NCBI GenBank assembly: GCA_041662965.1
Contig: JBAZRI010000001.1
Coordinates: 35,680 to 99,679, forward strand
Length of the DNA stretch: 64,000 bases
DNA from: Patescibacteria group bacterium
GTDB taxonomy: Bacteria > Patescibacteriota > Patescibacteriia > Patescibacteriales > GWC2-42-12
Reading direction: 5' to 3'
Part shown: positions 2,930 to 54,031 of the stretch, piece by piece
Position numbering within the stretch: position 1 is the stretch's first letter
Layout: each line of letters opens with the position of its first letter
Notes under the pieces: model-generated
Told to the model about the DNA's origin: nothing
Databases searched by the model: none
Seen by the model: the letters and a program-made list of their open reading frames with translations, nothing else
Position numbers and translations under genes: made by a program

Positions 2930-4615
2930 ATGCTAAAATATTCAACAAAAATAATTATAATAGGAATTCTGGCGGTGATTTCGCTCACCGGCGGACTGCT
3001 GTATTTTAATTTCAGTAAAACCGCCGGCGATCCGGTTCAGGTTTTTAAAGATATTACCGAAACTAATATCGGCCTAAGCGTCCCGCCGCTAAAAATTTCC
3101 GATTTAAATATTAGTTTTCCTTTTACGGACGATAATCAAGGCGAGACGCTGATTATTAAGTCGGATAAAAAAACTTACTCTGATTTTAACGGCTCGGAGG
3201 TTTATCTAAGCGTGACCAACATCGGCGATCAAGAAGAAAACGCCGTTTTTCTGGCCTACTTTTCCAGATTTAACGGCGAGGTAGAGAATATTCAAAAATG
3301 GGACGGGGGAAAGTGGCAGGACCTGGATGTTTCGCGCGGCAATATTATAATCAATGATACTATTTTAAGCCGGGCTTTAGCCAAAAGAAAACCGATTCCC
3401 GCCGGCCTGGAGGTTAAAGGCGGCGCCAGATTCGCGGTTCTGCCAGGAGAGACTAATTATTTCCGCGCGGAGATTAAATATTATCCGGGGAGTAAAGGCG
3501 AATTTTGGCTGGAAGCTTTAGGTGACCGGGGCGGTTATGGTTTGCTTGATCCATGGTATAATTCTTCTTGGACCTACCGTAAACCACATACTATTAACGC
3601 GGCTACCGGCGCGGGTACGAATTATCAGGTTAAAATAACCGCGCATTATGGTTCGGGTTCGGACAGCGGCGGCGACGTTTATTTAGACAGCCACAGCCGG
3701 ACTGATTTCGCCGACATTATGTTTACCGCCAGCGACGGTTCAACTCTTTTGGATTATTGGCAGGAATCAAAGACCGACAGCGACAACGCGGTTTTCTGGG
3801 TGCAGGTGGCGGCCGACTTAAGCACCGAAAACCAGGATATTTATATTTACTACGGCAACGCCGGCCAATCAACCAGCGCCTCCAACGGCTCAAACACTTT
3901 TTTATTTTTTGATGATTTTTCCGGCGATTTAAGCAAATGGACTATCGACGCGGAGAACACGGATAAAATAACCATAGTCAGCGGCGCCCTGCGCCATGAC
4001 CCGGACAGCACGCAGACCAAGAATTCTTATTTTGATACCCGCTGTTATGTCACGACTTTATCGCTGACCGATTTTTCCCTTAATTACCGAACATATTTGG
4101 GCGGCGGCGCTAACAGGAAAATCCATCAGATGGGCTGGCGGACGGACGGCTTAACTTTTAATTCCGGCTATGCCTGGCGCAACCAAAATTCGGCGTCAGA
4201 CGGCGGTTTTTTTAGATTCGCTTCCGGAGCTTGGACCTCAATCGGCACGGTTTACGGGCCGGTAGCCGCCGACACTTGGTATGCCATGAAAGTCAACGCC
4301 GTCGGCTCTAGCATGGAAGCTTTTATTAACGGCGCTTCAGTCAGAACCGTTACCGATGCCACGACGGCCGGCGGCAGCTTAACTTCCCATGTTCACGGGG
4401 TCAGCCTAGGGGCTAGCGATTATGTTTTGGTTGACGATGTTTATGTCCGCAAATTAGTAGCGACCGAGCCGGCGAATAGCGTTTGGGGCGGCGAAGAAAC
4501 CGCTCCCGCGCCGGAAACGCCGGCCGCCGCGCCCAACCCCCAAGGCGTTAATATCCAGACCGATACGGTTTTTAAAGGCAATATGATTTTTAAAGCCGGC
4601 GCGCCGGTAGAGTAA
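2930..4615 (+). CDS. Membrane-anchored surface protein with a DUF2341-like domain, a ConA/LamG-like domain and the conserved C-terminal tail
   Basis: N-terminal TM helix (IIIIGILAVISLTGGLLYF). WTYRKPHTINAATGAGTNYQVKIT...IYIYYGN is near-identical to the second DUF2341 copy of ORF 2..2827. The C-terminus is PNPQGVNIQTDTVFKGNMIFKAGAPVE. Confidence 0.75.
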   Translation: MLKYSTKIIIIGILAVISLTGGLLYFNFSKTAGDPVQVFKDITETNIGLSVPPLKISDLNISFPFTDDNQGETLIIKSDKKTYSDFNGSEVYLSVTNIGDQEENAVFLAYFSRFNGEVENIQKWDGGKWQDLDVSRGNIIINDTILSRALAKRKPIPAGLEVKGGARFAVLPGETNYFRAEIKYYPGSKGEFWLEALGDRGGYGLLDPWYNSSWTYRKPHTINAATGAGTNYQVKITAHYGSGSDSGGDVYLDSHSRTDFADIMFTASDGSTLLDYWQESKTDSDNAVFWVQVAADLSTENQDIYIYYGNAGQSTSASNGSNTFLFFDDFSGDLSKWTIDAENTDKITIVSGALRHDPDSTQTKNSYFDTRCYVTTLSLTDFSLNYRTYLGGGANRKIHQMGWRTDGLTFNSGYAWRNQNSASDGGFFRFASGAWTSIGTVYGPVAADTWYAMKVNAVGSSMEAFINGASVRTVTDATTAGGSLTSHVHGVSLGASDYVLVDDVYVRKLVATEPANSVWGGEETAPAPETPAAAPNPQGVNIQTDTVFKGNMIFKAGAPVE

Positions 4616-4632: not shown

Positions 4633-4830
4633 TGTCATTGCGAGCGTAGCGAAGCCTGCCTACCGGTAGGCAGGCAATCTCACGGACAATTTTACAGAAT
4701 AAACCTTTATCGCAGGAACAATCTATAAATGTTTTAGGAATCCGATTCCTTCGGAGGAATCGGATTCCTTCCGCCGCATACGGCCTTCTCGCAATGACAA
4801 ACAGCAAGATAGTCGCTCGCAATGACAAAT
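4633..4830. repeat. LamG-upstream module, full copy
   Basis: The order is gtcattgcgag, the palindrome gcctgcctaccggtaggcaggc, acaattttacagaataaacctttatcgcaggaacaatctataaat, H1 (4736-4769), ccgccgcatacggccttctcgcaatgac, and a second ctcgcaatgac. Confidence 0.85.
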
Positions 4831-7976: not shown

Positions 7977-10900
7977 ATGAAGATTAAAAGAATAAAATTA
8001 AATAGTCAAAAGATTGTTTTAGGAATCCGATTCCTTCGGAGGAATCGGATTCCTTCGGCCGCTTTGGCCGCCTTGCTTATCTTCGCTTTGGCAGGAAGCT
8101 ATTTTTTATTTTTTAAAAGTACTGCCGTGGAGGCCGGCTGGTGGAACGATTCGTGGCAGTACCGCAAAGCCATTAATATTACTAATGATTCGGGAGCCGA
8201 GCTCGTAGATTTTCAGACTTTGGTTTTAAGCGCGGTTAATTTGTCCGCCGATATCACCGCCGGGAAAATTCGCGCGGATTTAGGCGATCTGCGCTTTGTT
8301 AATTATTTGGGCGAGGTTTTGCCTTACTGGATTGAAGATATTACCGCTACGACCACGGTTAACGCCTGGGTTAAGGCGCCCAGCTTGCCTGCCGGCGGCG
8401 CGACTATCTATATGTATTACGGCAATCCGTCGGCCACGAGCGCGCAAAATCCGAGTAATATTTTTCCGTTTTTTGACGATTTTAATTCTTCTTTAGATAC
8501 GGCTAAATGGACGGCCACGGGCGCTTATTCAATTTCCGGCGGCGCCATGACGATTACCACCGGCGCGGTTTATACCAACAGCCAGATTTTAGCCACGGCG
8601 CAAAATTATATTTATGAATATAAAGCCAAATGGGCGGCCACGGGCTCCGGCTATGCCGGTTTGGAAATCGCGGGCGCGCAAACTACTTATGGCAGTAACA
8701 GTCCGGCTAATAAACTAGCTTATTTTATGACTAACGGCGGCGCTTTAGACAATCAGGCCTGGGCGGGCGATGGAACGGTCACTTCATATAATATTGTCAG
8801 CGGGGTTACGCAATACACGGTTACGGCTAATACTTATTATATAGACGGTTTTTCCGTTGATGCTTCCAATATCAGATATTATCATAATCGCAGCCAAACC
8901 AATCCTTACGCCGGCACCTGGACTTCGGCGCCTTATCTTTGGCTTGGTTATTTTACCGGCGCGGGCGCGGGCACGACCGATACTCGCGACTTAACCGTGG
9001 ATTGGGTTTTAGCCAGAAAATACGCTTCAACCGCGCCGACCGCCGCGGCGCCGGCGACCGAAGAAGTTGCCGCCGGCCCGGTTGCTTATTGGTCCTTAGA
9101 CGACGGGCAGGGCATCACGGCGCAGGACGGCACTACTAATAAAAATAATGGCACGCTGACAAATATGTCCGCCACCGCCTCTTCCACTTCCGGCTGGCAG
9201 ACGGAAGATAATTGTATCGCGGGAAAATGCTCGGCGTTTGATGGGGGGAATGATTATGTGGATATAGGCAATAGCAATATATTAAAACCATCACTACCAA
9301 TTACTGTGTCCGTATGGGTAAAGTTAAAAGTTAATAATGTTTATCAAGGTATTTTAATGAATGACGATTATTATTCGGATAGTAGCGGTAATTATTATGG
9401 AATTGAGGTTGATATAAGCAATAGCGGTAAATTACGAGCAAGTTTTGGAGACGGAGCCGGTAATAGTCTGTCAAACCGTCGTACTAAAACAGGAACAACA
9501 GCTTTATTAACAAATATTTGGTATCATCTTACTTTCGTCATTAGAGGTGCTAATGACATGAGTTTATATATAAATGGTGTTGATGATGGGGGCACTTATG
9601 AAGGAAGTGGCGGTGTATTAGCTTATAGTTCCGCAAGTGGCCGCATAGGAGAAATGGATAGTAATTTTCACATTAATGGTAAAATCGACGAGGTAAAAGT
9701 TTATCCATATTCCCGCACGGCGGCACAGATTAAAATGGATTATAATGTCGGACTGGCCGGGATGAGCGGAGCATCTGCCGGAGACGGCGCGGCTGTTTCC
9801 ATCGGTAAAAAATCTAGCGCCTGGCTGAGTAATGGGTTGGTGGCTTGGTGGAAAATGGATGAAACCGCCACGACTTCCGGAGCGATTGATTATTCGGGCA
9901 ATGGCAATACCGGAACCTACATAAACACGGCTTCCACCACGGCCGGCTATTTTGGCAATGGCGGAAGCTTTGACGGGGTGGATGATTATGTTTCAATTCC
10001 TGATAACGGAACAATTTTAGATTTTAACGCCACCAGCCAATATACTTGGTCAAGCTGGATAAAAAATGCCAGTACGACTTCAGGCACTTCGTGCTTTTTG
10101 TCTAAAGATGGGATTCCGGTATCAAAAATAGTGGGATTTAATTTATGTTTAAATCAAACCGACAGTACGGCCGACGTAGTTGTTTGCAAAGGAAATGGAG
10201 CGTGGGAACTTAATTGTTCCAGCGGGTTAGGCTTAAATATTGCGGTTAACGAATGGAATAATATTGCTATAACTTATGACGGAGCCACCAATTGGGGGAT
10301 TTATAAAAACGGCAGTTTAATGGGAACGATTAATTTCGCGGTTGATTCAGATACTTCGTATAAATATTTCATTGGCGCCGGAGTGGATACAACAAACACA
10401 GGAGTTCAAACCCCAGAACATTTTTTCAAAGGCTCTGTTGACGATGTTCGGGTTTATAACCGCCTGCTTTCTAATCGTGAAGTCAGCGATTTATATAACT
10501 ACGCCCCCGGGCCGATAGCCTATTGGAAGATGGATGAGCGCAACGGCCAGTATGCTTATGATAATTCGGGCAATGGGAATAATGCGACCTTGGGCGCCTC
10601 CGCCGTGAGCGGCTCCGACGACCCGGCTTGGGCCAATGGAAAATTCGGCGCCGGGCTGAAGTTTGACGGGGTGGATGATCGGGTAAGCGTAGAAGATAGC
10701 GATAGCACGGATATCGGTTTCTCCAATTTAACTATTTCTTTTTGGATGAAAAACAACAATGTTTCTTCTTTACAGAGGATAATAGCTAAATTGGCGACTA
10801 ATGCGTCAGGGGCAGGATATTTCGTATCAACGGTTGGCGCCGGCAATCAGTTATATTTTCAGGCGCAAGACGGAGTTAATTCGCTTAATCCGGTTTTCAA

Positions 10901-14652: not shown

Positions 14653-14686
14653 AGGAATTGGATTCCTTTAAAGGAATCCAATTCCT
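14653..14686. repeat. Hairpin H1 variant (perfect 34-nt palindrome)
   Basis: aggaattggattcctttaaaggaatccaattcct. Confidence 0.85.
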
Positions 14687-14806
14687 GAACCGGCGGCGCG
14701 GTCAGATTCGGGAATTAAATCCCCCTAGCCCCCTTTGCTAAAGGGGGCAAGAAAAGAGGGAGGAGCGGTGAGGTTTGGAAATAAAATAAAAAATGATAAA
14801 AATTTT

Positions 14807-16580: not shown

Positions 16581-16795
16581 GTCATTGCGAACCCCGTAAT
16601 CGGGGTGAAGCAATCCCACGGACAATTTTATAGAGTAAATTTTTATAGCAGGAACAATCTATAAATGTTTTAGGAATCCGATTCCTTCGGAGGAATCGGA
16701 TTCCTTCCGCCTTCCTTCCGCCGCATACGGCCTTCTCGCAATGACAAAAAGAGATAAGCTCGCAATGACAAAAGAGAAGTTCGCGATGGCAGATA
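16581..16795. repeat. LamG-upstream module, full copy
   Basis: The order is gtcattgcgaa, the ccccgtaatcgggg hairpin, acaattttatagagtaaatttttatagcaggaacaatctataaat, H1 (16672-16705), a duplicated ttccttccgcc, and 2-3 copies of ctcgcaatgac. Confidence 0.85.
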
Positions 16796-20134: not shown

Positions 20135-20592
20135 AATCCCAAACCCCAATGACCAATGACCAAGCAAATCCCAATGGCATAAAACCCAAAGCAAAATACG
20201 ATTTAGAAGAAAGAACAGCTAAATACGCGGAAGCAATAATAGATTTTTCAAGAAAACTGCCGCAAGATACTATCAGCCGGCCATTGATAAATCAAATAAT
20301 CAGATCAGGAACCAGCATAGGAGCAAACTACAGCGAGGCGGATGAAGCCAGCTCTAAAAAAGATTTTTTAAATAAGATTGCCATAGCTAAAAAAGAAACA
20401 AAAGAAACTAAATATTGGTTAAGGATTATCGCTCATGCGTTACCGCAATATAAAGATGAGGCCAGAATATTATGGCGGGAAGCCCAGGAATTAAATTTAA
20501 TTTTTGCCGCTATAACCAGGAACTGTAAAAATAAAAATTAGGATTTAGGGTTTATGATTTTATTGGTCATTGGGGTTTGGTTGTTGGGATTT
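20135..20592. mobile_element. IVS-like cassette: four-helix-bundle gene enclosed by ~30-45-nt inverted repeats
   Basis: Left arm aatcccaaaccccaatgaccaatgacc (20135-20161, contains the ATG). Right arm ttggtcattggggtttggttgttgggattt (20563-20592). Confidence 0.5.
20149..20541 (+). CDS. Four-helix-bundle protein (23S rRNA intervening-sequence protein / Avd-like family)
   Basis: Family-typical ...QIIRSGTSIGANYSEADEASSKKDFLNKIAIAKKETKETKYWLRI...; 130 aa. Confidence 0.8.
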   Translation: MTNDQANPNGIKPKAKYDLEERTAKYAEAIIDFSRKLPQDTISRPLINQIIRSGTSIGANYSEADEASSKKDFLNKIAIAKKETKETKYWLRIIAHALPQYKDEARILWREAQELNLIFAAITRNCKNKN

Positions 20593-28489: not shown

Positions 28490-28644
28490 AATCCACCTCC
28501 ATTTTTTAAGTTGCAGTTAGTTTATATTCACCTGAAATATCGCCAAGCTCCTTAATGACAATTCTAATTTTTAAGGAACATAAAAACCAAACTCCTTGTT
28601 TGGTCTCCTTTGGTCGCCTACGCTAAAGCTTAGACGAACCGATG

Positions 28645-31451: not shown

Positions 31452-31490
31452 AAGGCCCGACCCCCTTTGTCAAAGGGGGCGAGAAAAAAT

Positions 31491-34400
31491 ATGAAATTTA
31501 CCCATCTCCACGTTCATAGCCATTACTCTCTCTTAGACGGATTGACTAAAATTGACGAGTTAATTCAAAAAGCCAAAGATGAAGGCTCTACCAGCCTGGC
31601 CTTAACCGACCATGGCGTTATGTATGGCGCCATAGAATTTTATCAAAAATGCAAAAAGGCCGGCATAAAACCGATTATCGGCGTGGAAGCCTATTTAGCG
31701 CCCGGGTCACGCCTTGATAAAAACGTCAAAGCCGATGAAAGAAATTATCATCTGGTGCTTTTGGCTAAAAATGAAATCGGCTATAAAAATTTGATTAAAC
31801 TGACTTCTATCGCGCATTTAGAAGGCTTCTATTATAAGCCGAGGATTGACTGGGAAGTTTTAACCAAGCATAAAGACGGCCTGATCGCCTTAACCGCCTG
31901 TTTGGCCGGCGAAATTCCCAAACTGATAACGGCCGATAAATTAGATAAGGCTAAAAAAAGAATTTTAGAATACGCCGAATTATTCGGGTCGGGAAATTTT
32001 TATTTGGAACTGCAGAGCCATCCTAACCTTGAAAATCAAGCTAAGGTCAACCGGGCTTTAATAAATTTTTCGCGCGAACTAAATCTGCCTTTAGTAGCGA
32101 CCAATGACGTCCATTATTTAAATAAAGACGACGACGAAGCGCAGGACGTTTTGCTTTGCCTGCAGACTAAGAAAAAAAAGGAAGATCGGGACAGGATGAC
32201 GATGATCGGCGGCGATTATTCTTTTCGCGGAGTAAAAGAGATGACCGAGTCTTTTGAGCATGTGCCAGAGGCGATCGCCAACACGGAAACCATCGCCGAA
32301 GCCTGCAATTTAGAAATTGAACTGGGTAAAATCCAATTGCCTTATTTTTCCGTTCCGGACGGGCAGAATATTGACGATTATATTGATAATTTATGCCATC
32401 AGGGCTTAATTGAGCGCTACGGCAAAAGCTATGGCGAAATTGATCCGGTTATAAGGGAAAGAATGGATTACGAGCTAACCGTCATTAAAAAAATGGGCTG
32501 GCCGTCATATTTTTTAATTGTTTCCGACTTTGTCAATTGGGCGAAAAACAATAAAATCGTGGTCGGCCCGGGCCGCGGTTCGGCCGCCGGCTCCCTGGTT
32601 TCTTATTTATTAAATATCACCAATATTGATCCGCTTAAATATGATTTATTGTTTGAGCGTTTTTTAAATCCGGACAGAATCTCCATGCCGGATATTGATA
32701 TGGATTTCGCCGACGCGAGGCGCGACGAGGTTTTAAGATATGTGGAGAATAAATACGGCAAAGACCATGTTTCGCAAATAATCACTTTCGGCACCATGGC
32801 GGCGCGGGCCGCGATTCGCGACGTCGGCCGGGTGCTTGGCTATCCTTATGAATTATGCGATAAATTGGCCAAGATGATTCCCATGTTTTCTAAAATCGAT
32901 CAGGCGGTTAGCGAAATCGGCGAGCTGAAAGAAATTTACAGGACCGATCAGGCGGCCAAGCAGGTTATTGATTATGCCAAACGGCTTGAAGGCGTGGCGC
33001 GGCATGCCTCAACCCATGCTTGCGCGGTCATTATCACCAAAGATGCTTTAACCGAGTATGTGCCTCTGCAATACGCTTCTTCCTCGGACCGGACTATTGT
33101 CTCGCAGTTTTCCATGCATCCGGTAGAGGATTTAGGGCTTTTAAAAATGGACTTTTTAGGCTTGAAAAATTTAACTATTATTGAGTCGGCCATAAAAATC
33201 ATTAAAAATACCCGCGGGCTTCTAATTGATATTGATAAAATTCCGCAAGACGATGAGCTGGCTTATAAATTATTTCAAGCCGGGGAAACCACCGGCGTGT
33301 TTCAATTTGAATCCAGCGGCATGAAAAGATATTTGCGCGAGCTTAAGCCGACTGAATTTGAAGACATTATCGCCATGGTGGCTTTATACCGCCCCGGGCC
33401 CATGGAATGGATTCCTGATTATATTAACGGCAAGCAGGGCAAAAAAAAGCCGAATTATCTGCATCCCAAGCTTGAACCCATACTTTCAAAAACTTATGGC
33501 GTGGCGATTTATCAGGAGCAGGTCATGCAGATCGCCCGTGATCTGGCCGGCTTTACCATGGCCGAGGCCGATGTTTTAAGAAAAGCCGTGGGCAAAAAAA
33601 TCGTTAAGTTATTAGGCGAGCAAAAAGAAAAATTTATTGACGGCTGCGTTAAAAACAGCATTCCCAGCCAGCTGGCCGAAAAGATTTTTTCTTTTATTGA
33701 GCCTTTCGCCGGCTACGGCTTTAACCGCTCTCATGCCGCCTGCTACGCTTTAATCGGCTATCAAACCGCTTATTTAAAAGCGCGCTGGCCCACGGAATTT
33801 ATGGCCGCTCTGCTTACCGCCGACCAGCAGAATACCGACCGCATCGCCATTGAAATTGACGAATGCCGGCATATGGGCATAAAAGTCATGGCGCCGGATA
33901 TAAACCAATCTTTTGATTCTTTCACTGTGGTAACGTCCGGCACGGAAAAAAATATGGCGGTTAACCCGGATGAAGCGCCGGACACTATCCGCTTCGGGCT
34001 CAAAGCCGTGAAAAATATCGGCGACCATATTGCCGAAGAAATAATCATTGAGCGCAAAAAGAACGGGCCGTACAAAGATATTACCGATCTTTTAGAAAGA
34101 GTCTGCGATAAAGATTTAAATAAAAAGTCGCTGGAAAGCTTGATCAAATCGGGCGGACTTGATAAATTCGGCGAACGCGGCCGGCTCTTAGGCAACATGG
34201 ACAACATTTTGGAATTTAACCGCGAAACCACTAAAACAAAATCCAACGGCCAGGTCAGCCTGTTTTCCGATGCCCCGAGCTTGAATTTCAGCCGCCAGCT
34301 TAAGCTTGTTTCGGCGCCGGCCGCCACGGGGCGCGAAAAATTAGCTTGGGAAAAAGAACTTTTAGGCCTTTATGTCAGTGAGCATCCTTTTTCCGAGTTT

Positions 34401-35126
34401 AAGCAATTTTTAAATCAAGCGGTTTTGCCGGTGGCGCGCTTGGCCGAACATAAAGCCGATCAGCAGATTTATGTCGGCGGCGTTATTACCAAGATTAAAA
34501 AAATAATTACTCGCTCTAACGAGCCCATGCTGTTCGTTAAGATTGAAGATAATAGCGGCAGTTTGGAAATATTGGTTTTCCCGAGCCTGTTAAAAGAGAA
34601 TAATTTAATTTGGCAAGAAGGCAAAGTGGTGCTGTGCCAAGGCAAATTATCCGATAAAGACCAGGATCTTAAATTGCTGGCGAATAAAGCGGTTGAGCTT
34701 AAAATTGAAACCGCCGGTGAGGCGATAAAAAAATTCACGGCTTCGGGCAACGGGAAAAACAGCCACGAGCCGAGAAAATTTTTTGGTTATCAGCGGCCGA
34801 AATCTTATCCGCCGGCTCGCCTCGCTGACCCGCGCTACGCCGAAAGCTTCAGCGAGGCGAGAGCTCCGGCGAAGCGGGCCGGCACAGCGCCGACGGCGAA
34901 GCATTTAATTTTTGAAGATGATAATTTATATATAAATTTAAATTCAAGCATCAACGCTTCGGCGCTGGAAAAATTAAAACAAGCGCTTTTAAAAAATAGC
35001 GGCGATAAAAAAGTATTTTTTAAATTATCGTCCGGCGCCGGCGCCAATATTAAATTAGTTGAGACCGATTTTAAGGTTGATTACAATAAATTTTTAGTTG
35101 AAGCCATAAATAATATTTTAAAATAA
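31491..35126 (+). CDS. dnaE: DNA polymerase III alpha subunit
   Basis: PHP domain start MKFTHLHVHSHYSLLDG and ...GPGRGSAAGSLVSYLL..., FNRSHAACYA. The ATG at 31491 is preferred over the TTG at 31467, which lies in a hairpin repeat. Confidence 0.9.
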   Translation: MKFTHLHVHSHYSLLDGLTKIDELIQKAKDEGSTSLALTDHGVMYGAIEFYQKCKKAGIKPIIGVEAYLAPGSRLDKNVKADERNYHLVLLAKNEIGYKNLIKLTSIAHLEGFYYKPRIDWEVLTKHKDGLIALTACLAGEIPKLITADKLDKAKKRILEYAELFGSGNFYLELQSHPNLENQAKVNRALINFSRELNLPLVATNDVHYLNKDDDEAQDVLLCLQTKKKKEDRDRMTMIGGDYSFRGVKEMTESFEHVPEAIANTETIAEACNLEIELGKIQLPYFSVPDGQNIDDYIDNLCHQGLIERYGKSYGEIDPVIRERMDYELTVIKKMGWPSYFLIVSDFVNWAKNNKIVVGPGRGSAAGSLVSYLLNITNIDPLKYDLLFERFLNPDRISMPDIDMDFADARRDEVLRYVENKYGKDHVSQIITFGTMAARAAIRDVGRVLGYPYELCDKLAKMIPMFSKIDQAVSEIGELKEIYRTDQAAKQVIDYAKRLEGVARHASTHACAVIITKDALTEYVPLQYASSSDRTIVSQFSMHPVEDLGLLKMDFLGLKNLTIIESAIKIIKNTRGLLIDIDKIPQDDELAYKLFQAGETTGVFQFESSGMKRYLRELKPTEFEDIIAMVALYRPGPMEWIPDYINGKQGKKKPNYLHPKLEPILSKTYGVAIYQEQVMQIARDLAGFTMAEADVLRKAVGKKIVKLLGEQKEKFIDGCVKNSIPSQLAEKIFSFIEPFAGYGFNRSHAACYALIGYQTAYLKARWPTEFMAALLTADQQNTDRIAIEIDECRHMGIKVMAPDINQSFDSFTVVTSGTEKNMAVNPDEAPDTIRFGLKAVKNIGDHIAEEIIIERKKNGPYKDITDLLERVCDKDLNKKSLESLIKSGGLDKFGERGRLLGNMDNILEFNRETTKTKSNGQVSLFSDAPSLNFSRQLKLVSAPAATGREKLAWEKELLGLYVSEHPFSEFKQFLNQAVLPVARLAEHKADQQIYVGGVITKIKKIITRSNEPMLFVKIEDNSGSLEILVFPSLLKENNLIWQEGKVVLCQGKLSDKDQDLKLLANKAVELKIETAGEAIKKFTASGNGKNSHEPRKFFGYQRPKSYPPARLADPRYAESFSEARAPAKRAGTAPTAKHLIFEDDNLYINLNSSINASALEKLKQALLKNSGDKKVFFKLSSGAGANIKLVETDFKVDYNKFLVEAINNILK

Positions 35127-41002: not shown

Positions 41003-41036
41003 AGATGTCCGAGGTCCCATAGGACGTCGGACATCT
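41003..41036. repeat. Hairpin repeat, family 'agaYRtccgacgtc'
   Basis: agatgtccgaggtcccataggacgtcggacatct. The related copy is at 46263..46295. Confidence 0.6.
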
Positions 41037-46262: not shown

Positions 46263-46295
46263 AGACATCCGACGTCCTGGAGACGTCGGATGTCT
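46263..46295. repeat. Hairpin repeat, family 'agaYRtccgacgtc'
   Basis: agacatccgacgtcctggagacgtcggatgtct fills the prfA-prmC spacer. Confidence 0.6.
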
Positions 46296-47483: not shown

Positions 47484-47504
47484 CCTGCCTGCCGGCAGGC
47501 AGGG
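47484..47504. repeat. Palindrome of family 'cctgcct(a/g)ccg(g/t)(t/c)aggcagg'
   Basis: cctgcctgccggcaggcaggg. Other copies lie at 4654..4675, 47674..47693 and 48764..48782. Confidence 0.8.
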
Positions 47505-47718
47505 AACTTTTGGGGTGCCTCAATTGGCTATCACGCCAATTAATCTTCCTACTGTAAGCCTTGGCGCCAATTCGTCACCCCAAACCCCGGGGTGATTTTA
47601 ACTTGATTTTAAATAATAGTAATAACAAAAACGGTTATTCCCTTAATTATGCCATAATTATATTATAGCACAACCTGCCTGCCGTCAGGCAGGCAAAAAG
47701 AATAACCGTTTAGAGTAG

Positions 47719-48224: not shown

Positions 48225-48684
48225 ATAAATAATAAATTTTAGTTATTCTTCTTTATTAAATGATTTTTTTTAAAAAATAAAAAGAGCCCTGTACGATTGA
48301 TGTTTGACGTACGAAGGCTCGTTTGAAAAAACGTTTCATACTACTAACCGGCAAACTCCCTAATCATTTGATCGTTGAGACTGAACTTGTCCCAATCTTC
48401 ACGAGGAATAACCTCAATTATCTGTTTGGGGCATATCGCCTCGTAGCCATGCATTGATTTTCCTTGGATTTTGCCATCACACACTGGAAAAGGAAATGAC
48501 CATCTGCCATGCAGGTAGGCGAAAAAAAGTTTATTCTCGCCGCCATCATTGAGAAGAAAAAAACCGCTCTCAAGTTTACCGAATTCCATTTTGATAAGTG
48601 CCATTTTAATTCCTCCTTCTTTTATATAGACGTTTTTTTAAAAAAGTTCTAAATCAATAAGAATAATTAAAATTTATTATTTAT
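48225..48684. mobile_element. Mini-cassette bounded by 24-bp inverted repeats that carries the 86-aa ORF
   Basis: The reverse complement of ataaataataaattttagttattc (48225-48248) matches gaataattaaaatttattatttat (48661-48684) at 23 of 24 positions. Confidence 0.5.
48344..48604 (-). CDS. Hypothetical 86-aa protein
   Basis: Strong SD (GAAGGAGGAattaaaATG). A downstream terminator (gagccttcgtacg...cgtacagggctc + ttttt, ~48281-48325) follows. No recognised motif. Confidence 0.55.
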   Translation of the reverse strand: MALIKMEFGKLESGFFLLNDGGENKLFFAYLHGRWSFPFPVCDGKIQGKSMHGYEAICPKQIIEVIPREDWDKFSLNDQMIREFAG

Positions 48685-48951
48685 TCCACCAAAATTTAAT
48701 CCCTTAATTAAGCTATGATAGCAAAGATAATAGTTTTTGTCCAGTCTAGGCCTATATGATGTTCTGCCTACCGGTAGGCAGGGTTGACAAAATATTAATA
48801 ATATTATAATCTACTGACATAGCTTTAATCGGCTTCCGCCTTATTCGGCGGATAAAATTTTAATTTATTAAATCTCTCATACTTCCGTAAAAATTTTCCT
48901 TGTTTCGCTTTTAGCGAAATAATTGGGAGTAGAGGCAAACCGCTTCGGCGG

Positions 48952-48982
48952 TACCCGCCTTCGCTAAAGCTACGGGCGGGTA
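48952..48982. repeat. Hairpin repeat, family 'cgcctNcgctaaagct'
   Basis: tacccgccttcgctaaagctacgggcgggta. Related copies lie at 28612..28640 and, inside gap, at 53353..53380. Confidence 0.7.
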
Positions 48983-48999
48983 AAAAAGGAAAAACATCT

Positions 49000-49704
49000 A
49001 TGAAACTACCTTCAATCGAAGAGATGCTTAAGGCCGGAATGCACTTCGGGCATCGCACCTCAAAATGGCACCCTAAAATGGAGCCTTTTATTTTTGGCTC
49101 AAGAAAAGGCGTGCACATCGTTGATTTAAGAAAGACGCAAAAAATGCTGGGCCTAGCTTTAGAGTATCTAAAAAAGCAGGCGGCCGAAGGCAAATCCATC
49201 CTTCTAGTCGGCACTAAAATGCAGGTTAAAAGCATTTTGAAAAAAACCGCCGAAGAAGCCGGCGTGCCTTATGTTTCCGCAAAATGGCTGGGCGGATTTT
49301 TAACCAATTTTCCCATTATCAGAAATTTAATCAGAAAGTTTAAGGATTTATCGGAGAAAAGAGCCGGCGGAAAATTGGATAAATATACTAAAAAAGAACG
49401 GCTGGATTTTGACCGCCAGATCGCCAAGCTAGAAACTAACGTCGGCGGTTTAGTCAGCCTGACTAAGACTCCGGATGTAATTTTTATCTGGGATATTAAG
49501 AAAGAAAAAACCGCTTTTACCGAAGCTGTAAAAAAGAAAATTCCAGTAGTGGCGGTTTGCGACACCAACGTTAATCCCGACGGCGTTAAATATATCATTC
49601 CGGCTAACGACGACGCCTCTAAAGGCATAAAGCTGGTGATGAATTTAGTTAAGGAAGCGATTTTAGAAGGCAAGGCGGAAGCTCAAAATAAAGAAAATAA
49701 ATAA
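49000..49704 (+). CDS. rpsB: Ribosomal protein S2
   Basis: MLKAGMHFGHRTSKWHPKM... and the conserved core; 234 aa. Confidence 0.92.
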   Translation: MKLPSIEEMLKAGMHFGHRTSKWHPKMEPFIFGSRKGVHIVDLRKTQKMLGLALEYLKKQAAEGKSILLVGTKMQVKSILKKTAEEAGVPYVSAKWLGGFLTNFPIIRNLIRKFKDLSEKRAGGKLDKYTKKERLDFDRQIAKLETNVGGLVSLTKTPDVIFIWDIKKEKTAFTEAVKKKIPVVAVCDTNVNPDGVKYIIPANDDASKGIKLVMNLVKEAILEGKAEAQNKENK

Positions 49705-49858
49705 TAAAATTATCTGTCATTGTGAGCGATGCAATTTAATTTGTCATTGCGGGCTTGACCCGCAATCCAGAAACTTGTTTATCGCACTGAATCCTGGATT
49801 CCGGCTCGGGGGCCGGAATGACAGTAAAAAACTCCTCGCAATGACAATATATGTACAT

Positions 49859-50656
49859 ATGGAAAATATAAAAATTTTACGCGATAAAACCGGCGCCGGC
49901 ATGGTTGATTGTAAAATCGCCCTGGATGAATCCGGCGGCGATATTAATAAGGCCGTGGAAATTTTAAGAAAGAAAGGCATCGCCAAGGCGGCGAAAAGAA
50001 GCGATCGCCAAGCCGGCGAAGGCGTGGTTAAAGTTGCTTTAAGCGGCGACGCTAAGACCGGCTACATTTTAGAAATAAACGCTGAAACCGATTTTGTGGT
50101 TAAAAGCGAAAAGTTTCAGGAGTTTGCCGAAAAAATTATGCAGTTGATTAGGGAAAAACAGCCTAAAGATTTAGCCGAGTTAATGGCTTTAGATATTGAC
50201 GGCGCTACGGTTAAAGAAAATTTAGACAGCTTAAGCGGAATTATCGGCGAAAAATTAGACATAAAAAGATATGAGCTGCTTAATGCCATCGGCACGGTAG
50301 CGGCTTATTCGCATTTGGGCGGGAAAATCGGCGTCTTAGCAGCTTTAAATAAAGAAGGCCAAAGCGATATCGCCTACGACCTAGCCATGCAAATCGCGGC
50401 CGCTAATCCGAAATATATTTATCCGGAAGATGTCCCGGCCGATGAAGTTGAAAAAGAAAAAGAAATTTATAAGGCCCAGCTTTTAAAAGAGGGCAAGCCG
50501 GAAAATATGATTGATAAAATCATGCCGGGAAAATTGGCCAAATTCTACGAAGAAGTCTGCCTGGTCAAGCAGGAGTATATTAAAGACGATAAAAAGAAAA
50601 TTGAAGATATCCTCGGGGGCGTCAAGGTGGAGAAATTTATTAGGTATAGTTTATAA
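49859..50656 (+). CDS. tsf: Elongation factor Ts
   Basis: MENIKILRDKTGAGMVDCKIAL (UBA-like N-terminus). The ATG at 49859 is preferred, because the upstream part of the ORF translates repeat sequence. Confidence 0.9.
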   Translation: MENIKILRDKTGAGMVDCKIALDESGGDINKAVEILRKKGIAKAAKRSDRQAGEGVVKVALSGDAKTGYILEINAETDFVVKSEKFQEFAEKIMQLIREKQPKDLAELMALDIDGATVKENLDSLSGIIGEKLDIKRYELLNAIGTVAAYSHLGGKIGVLAALNKEGQSDIAYDLAMQIAAANPKYIYPEDVPADEVEKEKEIYKAQLLKEGKPENMIDKIMPGKLAKFYEEVCLVKQEYIKDDKKKIEDILGGVKVEKFIRYSL

Positions 50657-50706
50657 GCACACATAGATAGCTTCGCGGGCAATTATCCGCTCGCTGTAAT
50701 TTATAT

Positions 50707-51540
50707 ATGAAAGCAATCCAAGTACAATTTTCACCTTGGGATAAAAGATATAATTTTGATCCGGCCGATTTTACCGTAAATATCGGCGATCAAGTTATTG
50801 TTAAGACTGAATTAGGCGTTGAGATCGGCAAAGTAGTCGGCTGCCAAGATTTGCCGGATACAAAAATCAAGGCTAAGGCCGAAGATGGCGCGCCGGCTAT
50901 GGAAATAAAAGAAATTATCAGAATCGCCGGACCGGCTGATTTTAAAAAATTGCCGGACGAAAAGCAGAAAAAGAAAGATTTCGCTTTCTGCAAAAAAATT
51001 ATTGAAAAATACCAGCTGCCCATGAAGTTGGTTGACGTGCACTACTCTTTTGACGACGCCAGAATCACTTTTCCTTTTATCGCCGATTCCAGGATTGATT
51101 TTCGGGAGCTGGTTAAAGATTTAACCAAGCATTTTAGCCGCAGTATAAGATTGCAGCAAATCGGCATCCGCGATGAAGCCAGATTTTGCGGCGACTTCGG
51201 CCATTGCGGCCGCTCGCTATGCTGCGCCCGCTTTTTAGGCGACCTTAATTCCATAACTTCGGAAATGGCCGAGCTCCAGCAATGCGTGCACCGCGGCTCG
51301 GAACGGATTTCCGGCATCTGCGGCCGCTTGATGTGCTGTTTGGCCTATGAAGAAGACGGCTATAAAAAGCTGGCGGAAAAATTGCCGCCGATTGACAGCG
51401 AAGTAAAAGTTGAAGGCCGAAAGGGGCGAGTTTTAGCGCGCTATATTTTAAAGCAGACGGTGAAAGTGCTCTTAAGCGAAGGCAATGGCGAAGCCGGCGG
51501 AGTGGTTGAAGTTGAAGCCGGGAAAATAAAGAAGCTATAA
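50707..51540 (+). CDS. PSP1-domain protein (RicT/YaaT-like)
   Basis: PSP1 C-terminal-type domain and the Cys cluster CGDFGHCGRSLCCARFL...CGRLMCCLAYE. Confidence 0.75.
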   Translation: MKAIQVQFSPWDKRYNFDPADFTVNIGDQVIVKTELGVEIGKVVGCQDLPDTKIKAKAEDGAPAMEIKEIIRIAGPADFKKLPDEKQKKKDFAFCKKIIEKYQLPMKLVDVHYSFDDARITFPFIADSRIDFRELVKDLTKHFSRSIRLQQIGIRDEARFCGDFGHCGRSLCCARFLGDLNSITSEMAELQQCVHRGSERISGICGRLMCCLAYEEDGYKKLAEKLPPIDSEVKVEGRKGRVLARYILKQTVKVLLSEGNGEAGGVVEVEAGKIKKL

Positions 51541-51584
51541 TAATAGTATTGTCCGTTTAATATTATTATGCTATAGTGTGAAAT

Positions 51585-51884
51585 ATGGAAAAAGAAACAT
51601 CAAAAAATGAAATTTTAGAAGCTATTAATGAATTTTCAACTAGAGTTGACGAGAGGTTTGACAGATTGGAAGGAAGGGTCGGCAAAATTGAAGCTACTAT
51701 GGTGACTAAGGATTATCTTGACGATAAGCTCGGGGATTTGCGCGGCGATTTAGTGGTATTGATGCGCAAAGAAGACACCAAGATGATAAAATTAGTGGAA
51801 ATTTTAAAAAGGCGCGCCGTTATTACCGAGGCTGAAGAAAAAGAAATATTGTCCATGGAACCGTTTGCCAAGCTTTATGCTTAA
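51585..51884 (+). CDS. Hypothetical small coiled-coil protein
   Basis: 99 aa, predicted helical. A terminator-like hairpin with a T-run lies at ~51908-51940. Confidence 0.45.
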   Translation: MEKETSKNEILEAINEFSTRVDERFDRLEGRVGKIEATMVTKDYLDDKLGDLRGDLVVLMRKEDTKMIKLVEILKRRAVITEAEEKEILSMEPFAKLYA

Positions 51885-52135
51885 TTTTTAGTTAATCAGA
51901 AATTATAACCCGGCTTGCAAAAGCGGGGTTTTTGTTTTTTTGTCCCCCTTGATAAAGGGGGCTGGGGGTTATTATGTTGTTTTTTTAGTATAAGCAAAAA
52001 TTATTTAAACGGTTGACAAAAATTTAATATCGTGGTAAAAATTAAGGTCAAAATTGTACCTTTAACTGCGAGCCTGATATTTCGGCATGGGGTCGAAATA
52101 AAGGGCAAGCCCAAATTACATAGGAGGATGTCGCC

Positions 52136-52843
52136 ATGAAGAATTTGTCCCCATCCAAAGGTCTTAGCCGAGGCCAAATCGGCAAAATACAGGAGATGAT
52201 AGGACACGGTATTTTAAAGTCAACCGTGTTTCAAGACACCCCGACCGCTGAAGTGGACCGGTTTATCAAAAAAGTCGGTCCGGGTTTAAGGGATGCCTGG
52301 GTGGAACTGCTGGAAAAGCGGTTTCAAGATTTTATCGGCGCAGAACTGCTGGAAAAGCGGTTTCAGGATTTTATCAGCACTTTTCTCATTCCGGTCGATT
52401 ATGATGAACCGGAAGCGATCGCTAAGGCGATTGAAATGAATAAGTTCGACTGGAAATATGTCGGACTATCACCCGCGGAAATTCCGCTTGTCGGCACCGG
52501 CCGGGCTATATGGGATGTGCATGAAGTGCCTTTCGGCCGAATGATGTATAATAGCGACCTGCCGAACGCGCTTAAGCAGAGAGGCGAAGAGCTCGGCTAT
52601 AAAGGCGGATTTAAGTTTGTGGATCCGCTTACCGCCCTGCGTTTCGCTTGGACTAAACCCGATCGGCAGAAGAAACACCAGTTGGCTATATCTTTTATAG
52701 ACAAGGGGGGCCGGTCCTGGAGTCTTTGCCTTAGTGAGAATAACGGCGAGCGCCACCTGTACGTTTACCAGTTCAATCCCGGCGATAGCTGGGATGAGCA
52801 TGTTCGCTTTCTGGCCGTCTGCGAGTTGCCCTCGGTCGCTTAG
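52136..52843 (+). CDS. Hypothetical protein (orphan, SD-bearing, contains a 39-bp tandem duplication)
   Basis: Has an SD (AGGAGGatgtcgccATG). Its own promoter is TTGACA-17-TAAAAA at ~52015-52043. A terminator lies at 52886..52915 (cccgcggaa...ttccgcggg + T-run). Confidence 0.55.
   Translation: MKNLSPSKGLSRGQIGKIQEMIGHGILKSTVFQDTPTAEVDRFIKKVGPGLRDAWVELLEKRFQDFIGAELLEKRFQDFISTFLIPVDYDEPEAIAKAIEMNKFDWKYVGLSPAEIPLVGTGRAIWDVHEVPFGRMMYNSDLPNALKQRGEELGYKGGFKFVDPLTALRFAWTKPDRQKKHQLAISFIDKGGRSWSLCLSENNGERHLYVYQFNPGDSWDEHVRFLAVCELPSVA
52304..52381 (+). repeat. Tandem 2 x 39-bp in-frame duplication
   Basis: gaactgctggaaaagcggtttcaagattttatcggcgca is followed by gaactgctggaaaagcggtttcaggattttatcagcact, encoding ELLEKRFQDFIGA / ELLEKRFQDFIST. 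Confidence 0.9.
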
Positions 52844-52993
52844 ATTTTAAGCGTTTTTCGAATTTTTTGCCCTTTAGCATTTTCCCCGCGGAATTTTTAT
52901 TCTTCCGCGGGTTTTTTATTTTTGGGCTGTTTTTTTGTTTTTAAGAATTTATGCTATAATAAATTACATAATTATTTTTTATAAATAAATTAT

Positions 52994-54031
52994 ATGATTA
53001 ACATCGCAATAAATGGATTTGGCCGGATCGGCCGGGCGGTTTTTAAAGCTTTGCTTAATAAAAAGGGCATTAATGTCGCGGCGATTAATGATTTGACCGA
53101 GACTAAAGCGCTGGCGCAGCTGTTGCAGTATGACAGTTGCTACGGGATTTATGAAAAAAAAGTCAGCGCCGAGGCTGGTAATTTGGTAGTGGACGGTAAA
53201 AAGTACCAAGTGCTGGCGGAAAAAGAGCCGGCTAAATTGCCTTGGGGCAAACTGAAAATTGATATTATTTTAGAATGCACCGGCAGATTCTTAGATGAAG
53301 CTGGCGCCGGAGAGCATCTTAAAGCCGGAGCAAAAAAAGTAATTTTGTCCGCGCCCGCCTCCGCTAAAGCTACGGCGGGCAAGCCGTCTGATGACGAAAA
53401 TATCAAAACTATCGTTTTATCGGTTAATGAAAAAGATTTAACCAAGAACGATAAAATTATTTCCATGGCCTCCTGCACGACTAACTGCTTAGCGCCGGTG
53501 ACCAAAATAATTTCGGATAATTTCGGCGTTAAAAAAGCCATTATGTCCACTATCCATTCTTATACGGCCGATCAGAATTTAGTGGACGGACCGCATAAGG
53601 ATCTGCGCCGGGCCCGCGCCGCGGCTGTGAATATCGTGCCGACGACTACGGGCGCGGCTAAAGCCGCGGCTAAAACCATGCCGGAGCTGATCGGAAAATT
53701 TGACGGCTTGTCTTTTAGGGTGCCCACTCCGGTAGTGTCGCTTTGCGATACGGTTTATATTACGGAAAAGCCGGTGACCGCGGAAGCGGTAAACGCAGTT
53801 TTTAAAAAAGCCGCGGCCGGAAATTATAAAGGCTATGTGGACGCGACCGACGAGCCTTTAGTGTCATCGGATTTTATCGGCAACCCGGCCAGCGCGATCG
53901 TTGATTTACCTTTAACCAAAGTTATCGGCGGCGATATGCTGAAAATTATTTCTTGGTATGATAATGAATGGGGGTATAGTTGTCGGCTGGCGGATTTATG
54001 CGAGTATATTAGTAAGAAAGGTTTAATTTAA
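52994..54031 (+). CDS. gap: Glyceraldehyde-3-phosphate dehydrogenase
   Basis: INGFGRIGR, SCTTNCLAP, WYDNEWGYS. An extra ~11 aa (SAKATAGKPSD) follows the SAPA motif. Confidence 0.92.
   Translation: MINIAINGFGRIGRAVFKALLNKKGINVAAINDLTETKALAQLLQYDSCYGIYEKKVSAEAGNLVVDGKKYQVLAEKEPAKLPWGKLKIDIILECTGRFLDEAGAGEHLKAGAKKVILSAPASAKATAGKPSDDENIKTIVLSVNEKDLTKNDKIISMASCTTNCLAPVTKIISDNFGVKKAIMSTIHSYTADQNLVDGPHKDLRRARAAAVNIVPTTTGAAKAAAKTMPELIGKFDGLSFRVPTPVVSLCDTVYITEKPVTAEAVNAVFKKAAAGNYKGYVDATDEPLVSSDFIGNPASAIVDLPLTKVIGGDMLKIISWYDNEWGYSCRLADLCEYISKKGLI
53353..53380. repeat. Intragenic copy of the 'cgcctNcgctaaagct' hairpin inside gap
   Basis: gcccgcctccgctaaagctacggcgggc compared with the intergenic cccgccttcgctaaagctacgggcggg (48954-): one mismatch and one indel. 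Confidence 0.7.

Follow-up and report, generated by a model that had tools for sequence, protein, structure and literature searches.

A 30-nt hairpin repeat lying in frame in the gap gene of a Patescibacteria group bacterium belongs to a widespread family

INTRODUCTION

Among the small palindromic repeats of bacteria, the nearest parallel to the element reported here is offered by the Rickettsia palindromic elements (RPEs), which the passages of PMC10969869 that draw on Ogata et al. 2000 describe as about 150 bp long, confined to Rickettsia and divided into ten families. Repetitive extragenic palindromic (REP) sequences, as described in published abstracts, lie outside genes, number hundreds per genome, are lineage-specific and are co-inherited with a single gene for a REP-associated tyrosine transposase (RAYT). 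PARCELs (PMC2996958) are palindromic too; they spread horizontally, and the peptides they encode are similar whichever way round the repeat lies. Here we describe a 30-nt hairpin element, designated H1, that lies in frame within gap, the gene of type I glyceraldehyde-3-phosphate dehydrogenase (GAPDH), in a 64,000-nt stretch of contig JBAZRI010000001.1 of a Patescibacteria group bacterium (positions 35,680 to 99,679 of the forward strand). This whole stretch is called the window, and coordinates are counted from its first letter.

We consider it very probable that H1 is a small hairpin repeat with sharp ends which, in the manner of an RPE, was inserted in gap between the codon of Ala120 and that of the proline of the SAPAK motif. 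The family to which it belongs is widespread, and its copies inside genes are limited to open frames.

THE GAP GENE AND ITS INSERT

The gap open reading frame (ORF; Table 1) is 100% identical to P0001, a protein that NCBI names type I GAPDH and assigns to a Patescibacteria group bacterium. Its product carries PF00044 and PF02800 and aligns with 1GD1 (334 aa), its best solved homologue, at E 3.5e-107; the SCTTNC motif with the catalytic C161, together with H188, is invariant in our alignment A1. H1 is read as residues 121-130, PASAKATAGK, in frame between Ala120 and Pro131, and the alignment with 1GD1 opens a clean 10-residue gap opposite it.

Relative to its orthologues the 30-nt block is an insertion. 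DNA was compared across syntenic loci (rpmE, rpsB, tsf, PSP1, gap, nuoF-like): where the window has the filled site TCC GCG (30-nt unit) CCG TCT GAT GAC GAA AAT, the syntenic orthologue L002 (86-88% identical) has the empty site TCA GCA CCC GCT AAA GAC GAA AAT, and about 25 further relatives with GAPDHs of 333-335 aa are likewise empty (SAPAKDENIK). The gap gene of L006, whose protein is 69% identical, keeps the host codons CCC GCA AAA GAG whole 3' of a 30-nt block; the corresponding codons of the window have mutated (Table 1). Insert DNA is identical at 28 of 30 positions in a pair of gap genes whose identity outside the insert is only 70.6%. Lengths among the closest 120 GAPDH homologues run from 333 to 380 aa, with 334 aa in many of those at 84-88% identity, and almost all of this length variation falls, in the alignment, at one junction (SAPA/K..IKT). 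A preliminary description of this DNA, made from its letters, had put the surplus in the window's GAPDH at about 11 residues; extra residues there are, ten of them from the insert, and the eleventh is N-terminal (MIN vs MN), outside it.

The reading frame of gap is kept because the unit is 30 nt long, and four of the six frames of H1 lack a stop codon. Since CCNGC recurs 3' of the element, the register of the gap copy is ambiguous by 3 nt; the hairpin as first delimited (Table 1) starts with a G that is part of the host Ala120 codon. The minimum free energy of the gap copy is -17.6 kcal/mol, for a fold in which a 3x3 internal loop separates a 6-bp stem from a GC/GC helix with a UAAA loop. The copy would be read through, giving the predicted peptide ATAGKPSDDENIK and adding PASAKATAGK to what is probably an insertion-tolerant loop, with the catalytic residues unaffected. 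AlphaFold2 (59-sequence alignment) gave pLDDT below 50 for residues 124-133, above 90 for the flanks, and an otherwise confident N-terminal domain.

Table 1. Features of the gap and rpsB regions and the candidate H1 copies in the window
Feature	Coordinates	Strand	Sequence or basis
gap, type I glyceraldehyde-3-phosphate dehydrogenase, 345 aa, insert host	52994..54031	+	ORF
H1 hairpin element, 30 nt	53354..53383	+	CCC GCC TCC GCT AAA GCT ACG GCG GGC AAG
Hairpin in gap as delimited in the preliminary description	53353..53380	+	gcccgcctccgctaaagctacggcgggc; 7-bp perfect stem GCCCGCC/GGCGGGC, 14-nt loop
CCG TCT GAT (Pro-Ser-Asp), mutated from original SAPAK Pro-Ala-Lys	53384..53392	+	codon comparison with L002, L006
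H1 copy in rpsB 5' leader	48954..48984	+	CCCGCCTTCGCTAAAGCTAC(G)GGCGGGTAAA; ends 15 nt 5' of rpsB start codon (49000)
rpsB (ribosomal protein S2)	49000..49704	+	near-identical gene in L001 with PF00318, same N-terminus and upstream sequence
Tetraloop hairpin abutting the rpsB-leader H1 copy	48940..48951	+	CCGC-TTCG-GCGG; L004 without it
Short-loop form, marginal family member	48835..48856	+	TCCGCCTTATTCGGCGGATAAA; TCCGCC-TTATTC-GGCGGA-TAAA, H1-type stem and tail
Hairpin 3 nt 3' of tRNA-Leu(CAA), third relative of the preliminary description	28612..28640	+	CGCTAAAGCTT core only

THE COPY IN THE rpsB LEADER AND FAMILY MEMBERSHIP

The preliminary description matched the gap hairpin to an intergenic one at 48954-48980 (cccgccttcgctaaagctacgggcggg, 20 nt upstream of rpsB, whose ORF starts at 49000), with one mismatch and one indel. 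That difference is confirmed, and the strings it quoted are present where it placed them. The full leader copy has a minimum free energy of -17.1 kcal/mol (z -3.1). The 22-nt core CCCGCCTYCGCTAAAGCTACGG occurs at two places only in the window, in gap and in the rpsB leader, and 0 of 100 dinucleotide-preserving shuffles contained any match to it. A covariance model built from 111 copies of other genomes, none of them from the window, scored the gap copy at 50.1 bits (E 2.3e-9) and the rpsB-leader copy at 38.1 bits (E 1.4e-6). By both measures the nucleotide similarity is beyond chance, and the gap insert is a member of a repeat family with copies in spacers as well. The covariance scores, with the empty sites of orthologues and the gap in 1GD1, bear out the original proposal of a spacer-type, RPE-like palindrome that lengthens a GAPDH loop in frame.

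The short-loop form in the same leader reached 18.7 bits (E 0.044), which makes it a better candidate for a third copy than the one first proposed; its spot is occupied by TCCGCCCGAGGCGGATAAA in L005 and by nothing in L004. The leader copy of H1, too, is lineage-specific: the slot that runs from 'ggagtagagg' to the ribosome-binding site contains two hairpins in the window and in L001, is empty in L004 and is taken by unrelated hairpins in L005, L007 and L008.

As a side observation, the rpsB 5' leader as a whole (window 48835-48990; L004, L005, L007 and L008) has two slots with no hairpin, short hairpins or ones of about 120 nt, according to the relative, and the leader around the slots ('ctctcatactt...ggagtagagg') is conserved.

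The third relative that had been proposed, beside tRNA-Leu(CAA), did not survive. It folds at -13 kcal/mol (minus strand), was not recovered by searches that allowed as many as 3 or 6 edits, and was rejected as a significant family member, with a covariance model local match of 10.3 bits (E 3.8). The 9-mer CGCTAAAGCTT is mildly enriched in the window (observed 5 vs expected 1.47); other CGCTAAAGC sites (22401, 37272) are plain coding sequence without a hairpin and are unrelated.

DISTRIBUTION AND STRUCTURE OF THE FAMILY

The 30-nt consensus of H1 is YCCGCC-TTC-GC-TAAA-GC-TWC-GGCGGR-CAAG. When one genome per species was scanned with the pattern CCTYYGCTAAAGCTWCGGSSGR, at least 120 species gave matches, against about 4 expected by chance (our own estimate). 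Among the matches listed, the carriers include about 35 genomes of the Candidate Phyla Radiation (CPR) and span about ten phyla overall. Outside the CPR they belong to the Alphaproteobacteria, Bacteroidota, Verrucomicrobiota, Acidobacteriota and Planctomycetota, and to the Gammaproteobacteria, Bdellovibrionota, Nitrospirota, Omnitrophota and Acidimicrobiia. Four of the listed carriers are isolates, including a complete Maricaulis chromosome, and 20 IMG/VR viral contigs carry the unit. The unit has no match in 5,426 E. coli genomes or in 50,697 GenBank phage records; templating from a universally conserved RNA is therefore rejected. PLSDB plasmids gave no H1 match but a 22/23 partial one in Thermus megaplasmids, which lies within a hypothetical gene and is uninformative.

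Rfam 15 returned no family at E <= 1 over elements in six carrier loci or over window 48500-53500, and a literature search, with most subscription journals outside it, found no description of the 30-nt unit. The preliminary view that no such element had been described for CPR-type bacteria agrees with the literature searched; the family itself is not peculiar to the CPR, since it spans about ten phyla.

Across 141 unique copies, conservation is sharply bounded to the 30 nt, and the flanks are random, with at most a weak composition bias upstream. One fold accommodates all copies: a 6-bp stem leads through a 3x3 internal loop to a 2-bp GC helix, which is closed by a UAAA loop. The outer stem pair, which was left free in the search pattern, covaries (T-A 69, C-G 59, other 13; Fisher p = 5e-26), and the fourth stem pair is G-C in 90 copies, C-G in 7 and mismatched in 40. 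No target-site duplication was found, flanking direct repeats were not above shuffled controls, and junction microhomology was rejected as a general feature. Intergenic copies are oriented 10:10 to the flanking genes, without a preference for 3' ends. An intrinsic terminator or strand-specific RNA regulator was rejected, because C-A-A-G is followed by random bases with no T-run and both orientations occur. Where the genome is GC-rich, the unit often forms a pair with an inverted CCAAGG variant, or else stands in tandem arrays with a period of 30-33.

Three further patterns were observed around the unit. In a metagenome-assembled genome (MAG) of Bdellovibrionota (L046, L080, L087, L128), four copies lie in a longer repeat, where the unit is followed about 25 nt downstream by a CCAAGG-variant hairpin in inverted orientation, which makes a REPIN-like doublet. 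Many non-CPR genomes and viral contigs have direct tandem repeats of 7-10 nt on both sides of the unit (e.g., aagtcca, caatatt, ggaatta), which differ by genome (loci L062, L138/L142, L043, L105, L121, L075, L028, L120). In three alphaproteobacterial loci (L027, L054, L057) the unit stands in a longer conserved context, cccctcacccgac(unit)tcgacctctccccgc..gcggggagaggtg, that resembles a CPR hairpin designated H3 (CCTCACCCTAACCCTCTCC..GGAGAGG; see “A hot spot in gap”), and H3-like hairpins may also be common to several phyla.

COPIES WITHIN GENES

In low-GC genomes, a crude gene map places 31 of 74 copies (~42%) within ORFs. Twenty long host ORFs were tested and 18 proved to be Pfam-validated genes with the unit within the domain: TGT (twice, at different sites), HsdM, a pyridine-nucleotide disulphide oxidoreductase, ValRS/IleRS (twice), LigA (twice), RlmN, a radical SAM protein, ThyA, YchF, RecG, a P-type ATPase, PheT, two glycosyltransferases, HlyD and ComEA. 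Opposite the unit, solved homologues have gaps of 10 residues for YchF and TGT and of about 9-10 for ThyA. A planctomycete RlmN was rejected as a clean example: the exact 30-mer is in frame, but it faces a 7-residue gap against 6FZ6 in a variable helix.

For genomes with a GC content of at most 0.5, the 30 nt were deleted in silico and the frame was read in the restored host ORF. All 21 restored ORFs have the unit in a stop-free frame, for which the chance in the absence of selection is (4/6)^21 = 2e-4. The frames used were SAFAKASADK (11), LSAEALAKA (6) and LVRRSFSEGG (4); the open frame PPSLKLRRT and the two stop frames were used by none. Since in-gene copies occur only in stop-free frames, translation is favoured and removal at the RNA level is disfavoured.

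Further cases come from relatives of the window organism. The prmC gene of L002 carries an H1-type unit in the reverse frame (3122-3151; SPEALAKG; 46 bits), and that of L007 a longer insert, 'RRPARRQAG...'. The nuoF-like gene beside gap has a clean 10-codon insert in L007 (11595-11624; SAYAKASADK) and a composite one in L006 (4749-4778). In the nuoF-like gene of L002 (11185-11214) an element-like hairpin (SSVAKALADK) replaces the native 10 codons (SAVKNAVGDK in relatives) with the length unchanged, and the homologous site in L007 is intermediate between native and element-like, which suggests that the repeat may have converted similar native sequence in these genes. The mgsA-like gene of L007 has an H3 hairpin (20290-20310) and encodes 431 aa, compared with 402 aa for the orthologues of L002 and L008.

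A HOT SPOT IN GAP

An alignment of orthologues, as the preliminary description had proposed, found relatives without the loop, with H1 or with other hairpin elements; none had the same loop made from unrelated nucleotides. Junction states among relatives are empty, H1 ('SAKATAGKP'), H2, H3, H1+H2 (P0003) and H1+H3 (P0013). H2 is a 33-nt unit read as TIPPTPFIKGE or LTPPTPLVRGE, with the hairpin CCCCCTTT..AAGGGGG and arms ATCCCCCYARCCCCCTTT...AAAGGGGG. H3 is a 39-nt unit read as TPHPNPLLSKERG (peptide label 'PHPNPLLSKERG'), with the hairpin CCTCTCC..GGAGAGG and arms CCTCACCCTAACCCTCTCC...GGAGAGG. Unit lengths at this junction are thus all multiples of three, and inserts range from 0 to 37 residues across relatives. 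L007 and L152 have a second 30-mer, TCCGCC GAC GCY AAR GCT TTG GCGGAY AAR, nested in H1 at two differing positions.

A neighbour-joining tree, made without bootstrap, shows H1 at 8-9 separate tips or small clades, and an H1-free sister stands beside several of these (e.g., P0003, P0013, P0059, P0062). The eight sequenced gap copies have one register and one variant, TCC...ACG...GGC, while other H1 copies in the genomes that carry the gap insert are different variants. Because the eight share a rare variant, their relationship is one of descent or of gap-allele exchange, and independent landings are unlikely.

Other observations concern H2 and the gap gene itself. The H2 family, (A)TCCCCCYAR-CCCCCTTT-NNN-AAAGGGGG, is also intergenic (window 14729-14747, 31461-31479 and 51944-51961; L001 11055-11073), and in the gap genes of L004 and L008 an H2 unit forms the in-frame insert PPTPFIKGE or PPTPLVRGE. 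A second gap hot spot lies after KKG (about residue 26 in alignment A1), where three relatives (P0037, P0039, P0040) have 'NPVKSGSAGAKQFDGV'. Back-translation by eye of the insert at this site, 'NPVKSGSAGA..KQFDGV', gave AACCCCGT...ACGGGGTT arms, and P0039 has a nested insertion there. Gene calls of many GAPDH relatives are extended 5' through '..ISNGV', which resembles the right arm of a similar 5'-leader hairpin.

COMPARISON WITH DESCRIBED REPEATS

Like RPEs, H1 is a palindromic repeat found in spacers and in frame in many unrelated housekeeping genes, apparently tolerated at permissive sites and translated as an extra peptide, the last of which we infer for H1. It differs in size, with 30 nt or 10 residues against about 100-150 bp and tens of residues (the passages on RPEs in PMC10969869), and its near-identity across about ten phyla and viral contigs sets it apart from RPEs as described there.

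REPs and REPINs are also short (20-40 nt), GC-rich imperfect palindromes, comparable with the 30 nt and covarying 6-bp stem of H1. Both have a tetranucleotide beside the stem (CAAG in H1) and no target duplication, and both occur singly, in tandem and as inverted doublets, the latter two for H1 in GC-rich genomes. Against this, 31 of the 74 low-GC H1 copies lie in ORFs and the host ORFs tested are mostly Pfam-validated (18/20); the flank of H1 is CAAG or YAAR, 3' of the stem, not a 5' GTAG; and its sequence is common to phyla, with no recurrent gene near the copies in 140 loci. Identity across phyla is unlike known REP-RAYT pairs. The neighbour search was an all-against-all clustering of the ORFs around copies and covered these loci only.

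With IS200/IS605-type elements and their miniature derivatives H1 shares hairpin-defined ends and the lack of a target-site duplication, and seamless excision of that kind would explain the clean empty sites. Each of those, however, has a pair of unlike subterminal hairpins and goes to a fixed target of 4-5 nt, whereas H1 is a single 30-nt hairpin with at most a weak composition bias in its upstream flank; no TnpA was seen among the ORFs of the 140 loci. MITEs (miniature inverted-repeat transposable elements) such as ERIC, Correia/NEMIS, BOX and QMITE1 are likewise small non-autonomous repeats able to make in-frame fusions, yet they are 50-500 bp long, end in inverted repeats and are bordered by target-site duplications, in contrast to a solitary 30-nt unit without duplication. 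PARCELs are longer tandem intragenic repeats (PMC2996958), and H1 is solitary. Functionally, this is the RPE phenomenon, yet membership of the RPEs fails on size and host range, and the definitions of REPs, MITEs and terminators fail on the tested features.

ORIGIN AND PERSISTENCE OF THE GAP COPY

If the gap insert is an inserted repeat, as we favour, the element is best seen as selfish or neutral DNA that would act at the DNA level, since both orientations occur without gene-end bias or a T-run. Its persistence in gap would reflect tolerance, with no new enzymatic function. Our best guess for its spread is a hairpin-dependent single-strand process without duplication, like that of REP/RAYT systems or the 'peel and paste' of IS200/IS605 elements. 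Transposition of either type would fit because a tetranucleotide stands beside the stem, duplications are lacking and empty sites are seamless. Short target homology may perhaps assist: two targets resemble the unit, the gap SAPAK site (TCN GCN CCC GCT AAA) and nuoF SAVKNAVGDK, a resemblance that hints at a part for homology in insertion.

The patchy distribution in gap could be that of one old insertion, repeatedly and precisely lost or exchanged. Direct repeats that flank a hairpin are a classical substrate for slippage deletion. Loss of the unit might have come about by slippage between the CCNGC direct repeats on its two sides, aided by the hairpin; this 5-nt flanking repeat is specific to the gap site.

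Several points weigh against an inserted, merely tolerated repeat. The 64-kb window holds just two significant copies. Near the copies there is no mobilising enzyme and no recurrent protein family among 3,665 ORFs at 140 loci, the maximum being 7 of 140. The insert starts two residues past Ser119 of the SAP motif, which we take to be an NAD-contacting residue in GAPDH. Translation of the in-gene copies is a reading that we infer from frame statistics. Third-codon identity between the window and L006 is 8/10 in the insert and 0.49 in the gene, and such third-position conservation could mean that the hairpin is under selection for function, not merely tolerated. Lastly, the TCC...ACG...GGC combination is present in just 6 of 143 family members (~4%). 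Repeated independent insertion into gap appears unlikely from these variants, and with a common variant the patchiness calls for allele exchange or for a large number of precise losses. The strong synonymous-site conservation in the insert may stem from constraint on the hairpin, from recent exchange or from the two together.

The alternative which survives best is retention for function, the hairpin being an exapted element whose mRNA structure tunes translation or stability, or which supplies a functional peptide loop. We regard this as unlikely. It would account for the near-constancy of the insert (26-30 of 30 nt identical among gap alleles that are otherwise 69-83% identical, with third positions elsewhere at 44-64%), for a peptide PASAKATAGK that is the same in seven of eight gap alleles, and for the paired change of GCT AAA to GCC AAG in two separate lineages (L005, L150), a compensatory T-A to C-G exchange in the apical helix. 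Most close relatives, however, do well without the insert, and the third base of the Pro codon, which is in the stem, varies among C, G and T, so weakening or breaking one pair. Copies of the family also point either way, in genes as in spacers, without positional bias, and unrelated hairpins occupy the same gap junction.

Generation of the palindrome in situ by template switching (quasi-palindrome mutagenesis), with the host GCG CCC GC codons as left arm, is very improbable. The arms do invite the idea: the left arm GCCCGC consists mostly of native Ala-Pro-Ala codons, the right arm GCGGGC is its exact complement, the empty site CCCGCTAAAG is already like the element's CCCGCC..CGCTAAAG, and the native 10-codon stretch of the L002 and L007 nuoF-like genes has apparently been reshaped to a hairpin with its length unchanged. 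The remainder of the unit tells against it, because the 15-nt loop TYCGCTAAAGCTACG and the CAAG tail are untemplated at the empty site and identical to hundreds of copies in unrelated phyla. L006 moreover keeps its host PAKE codons after a clean 30-nt block, and the covariance model score disfavours this origin as well.

We give still less credence to intron-like removal of the element from RNA, which would leave it untranslated. The hairpin has a symmetric bulged shape, and the rRNA genes of CPR bacteria carry excised insertions. The stop-free frames of the in-gene copies (21/21) and the unit lengths at the gap junction (30, 33, 39 nt) would both be needless if the element were spliced out.

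That this is an ordinary lineage-specific GAPDH loop, like the rpsB leader by chance or through Ala/Lys/Gly codon bias, is hardly credible: palindromes form readily from GC-rich Ala/Gly codons and only two window copies are significant, but the idea is refuted by the shuffles (0/100 with a 22-nt match), the covariance model (E = 2e-9) and the empty sites of close relatives, and the same 30-mer lies inside unrelated genes. An assembly or library artefact deserves just as little belief, for although most carriers are short-read MAGs, the same insert occurs at the same codon in independent ENA, NCBI, JGI and Logan assemblies, copies are present in isolate genomes, including the complete Maricaulis chromosome, and the frame filter holds.

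OTHER REPEATS IN THE WINDOW

The window contains other hairpins and repeats besides H1 and H2. A perfect 34-nt palindrome, AGGAATCCGATTCCTTCGGAGGAATCGGATTCCT, has four identical copies (2846-2879, 4736-4769, 8021-8054 and 16672-16705) and a variant at 14653-14686; this family is separate from H1, and most of its copies lie just 3' or 5' of genes. Two groups of spacer hairpins were also seen, AGAYRTCCGA.GTCC...GGACGTCGGAYRTCT (41003-41036, 46263-46295) and CCTGCCTGCCGGCAGGCAGG with variants (47484-47503, 47674-47695, 4654-4675). The dnaE gene (31467-35126) contains, in frame, a hairpin with a 13-bp stem (34816-34861; -27.8 kcal/mol), past the OB fold and close to the C-terminal end of DNA polymerase III alpha. 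It encodes ...ARLADPRYAESFSEAR... and may represent a further case of an essential gene with an inserted hairpin. Upstream of gap, an ORF for a hypothetical protein (52136-52843, +) has an internal tandem duplication, ...VELLEKRFQDFIGAELLEKRFQDFIS..., and no Pfam match, and the gene is absent in several syntenic relatives.

IMPLICATIONS

More tentatively, the gap insert may exemplify a class of ultra-small mobile DNA that has gone undescribed, without terminal repeats other than the arms of its stem and presumably spread horizontally through environmental bacteria of at least 10 phyla and their viruses, with at least two further hairpin families alike in the same genomes (H2, 'PPTPFIKGE', and H3). 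If this is true, frame-neutral hairpins of 30 nt enter the loops of essential proteins as readily as they enter spacers. In-frame palindromic colonisation of essential genes, long treated as a Rickettsia curiosity, would then extend to the CPR and beyond, with a unit five-fold smaller. A sequence nearly invariant across phyla raises the question of what conserves and what moves 30 nt, and the filled, empty, nested and tandem sites at one locus make that question testable.

There would be consequences for the genes concerned and for those who read them. The units would be a recurrent source of 10-residue loop insertions for protein evolution. They would also create spurious ORFs and inflate the apparent divergence of proteins in metagenome-assembled genomes, and alignments and phylogenies of marker genes such as gap, TGT, ValRS, LigA and PheT can be misled by them.

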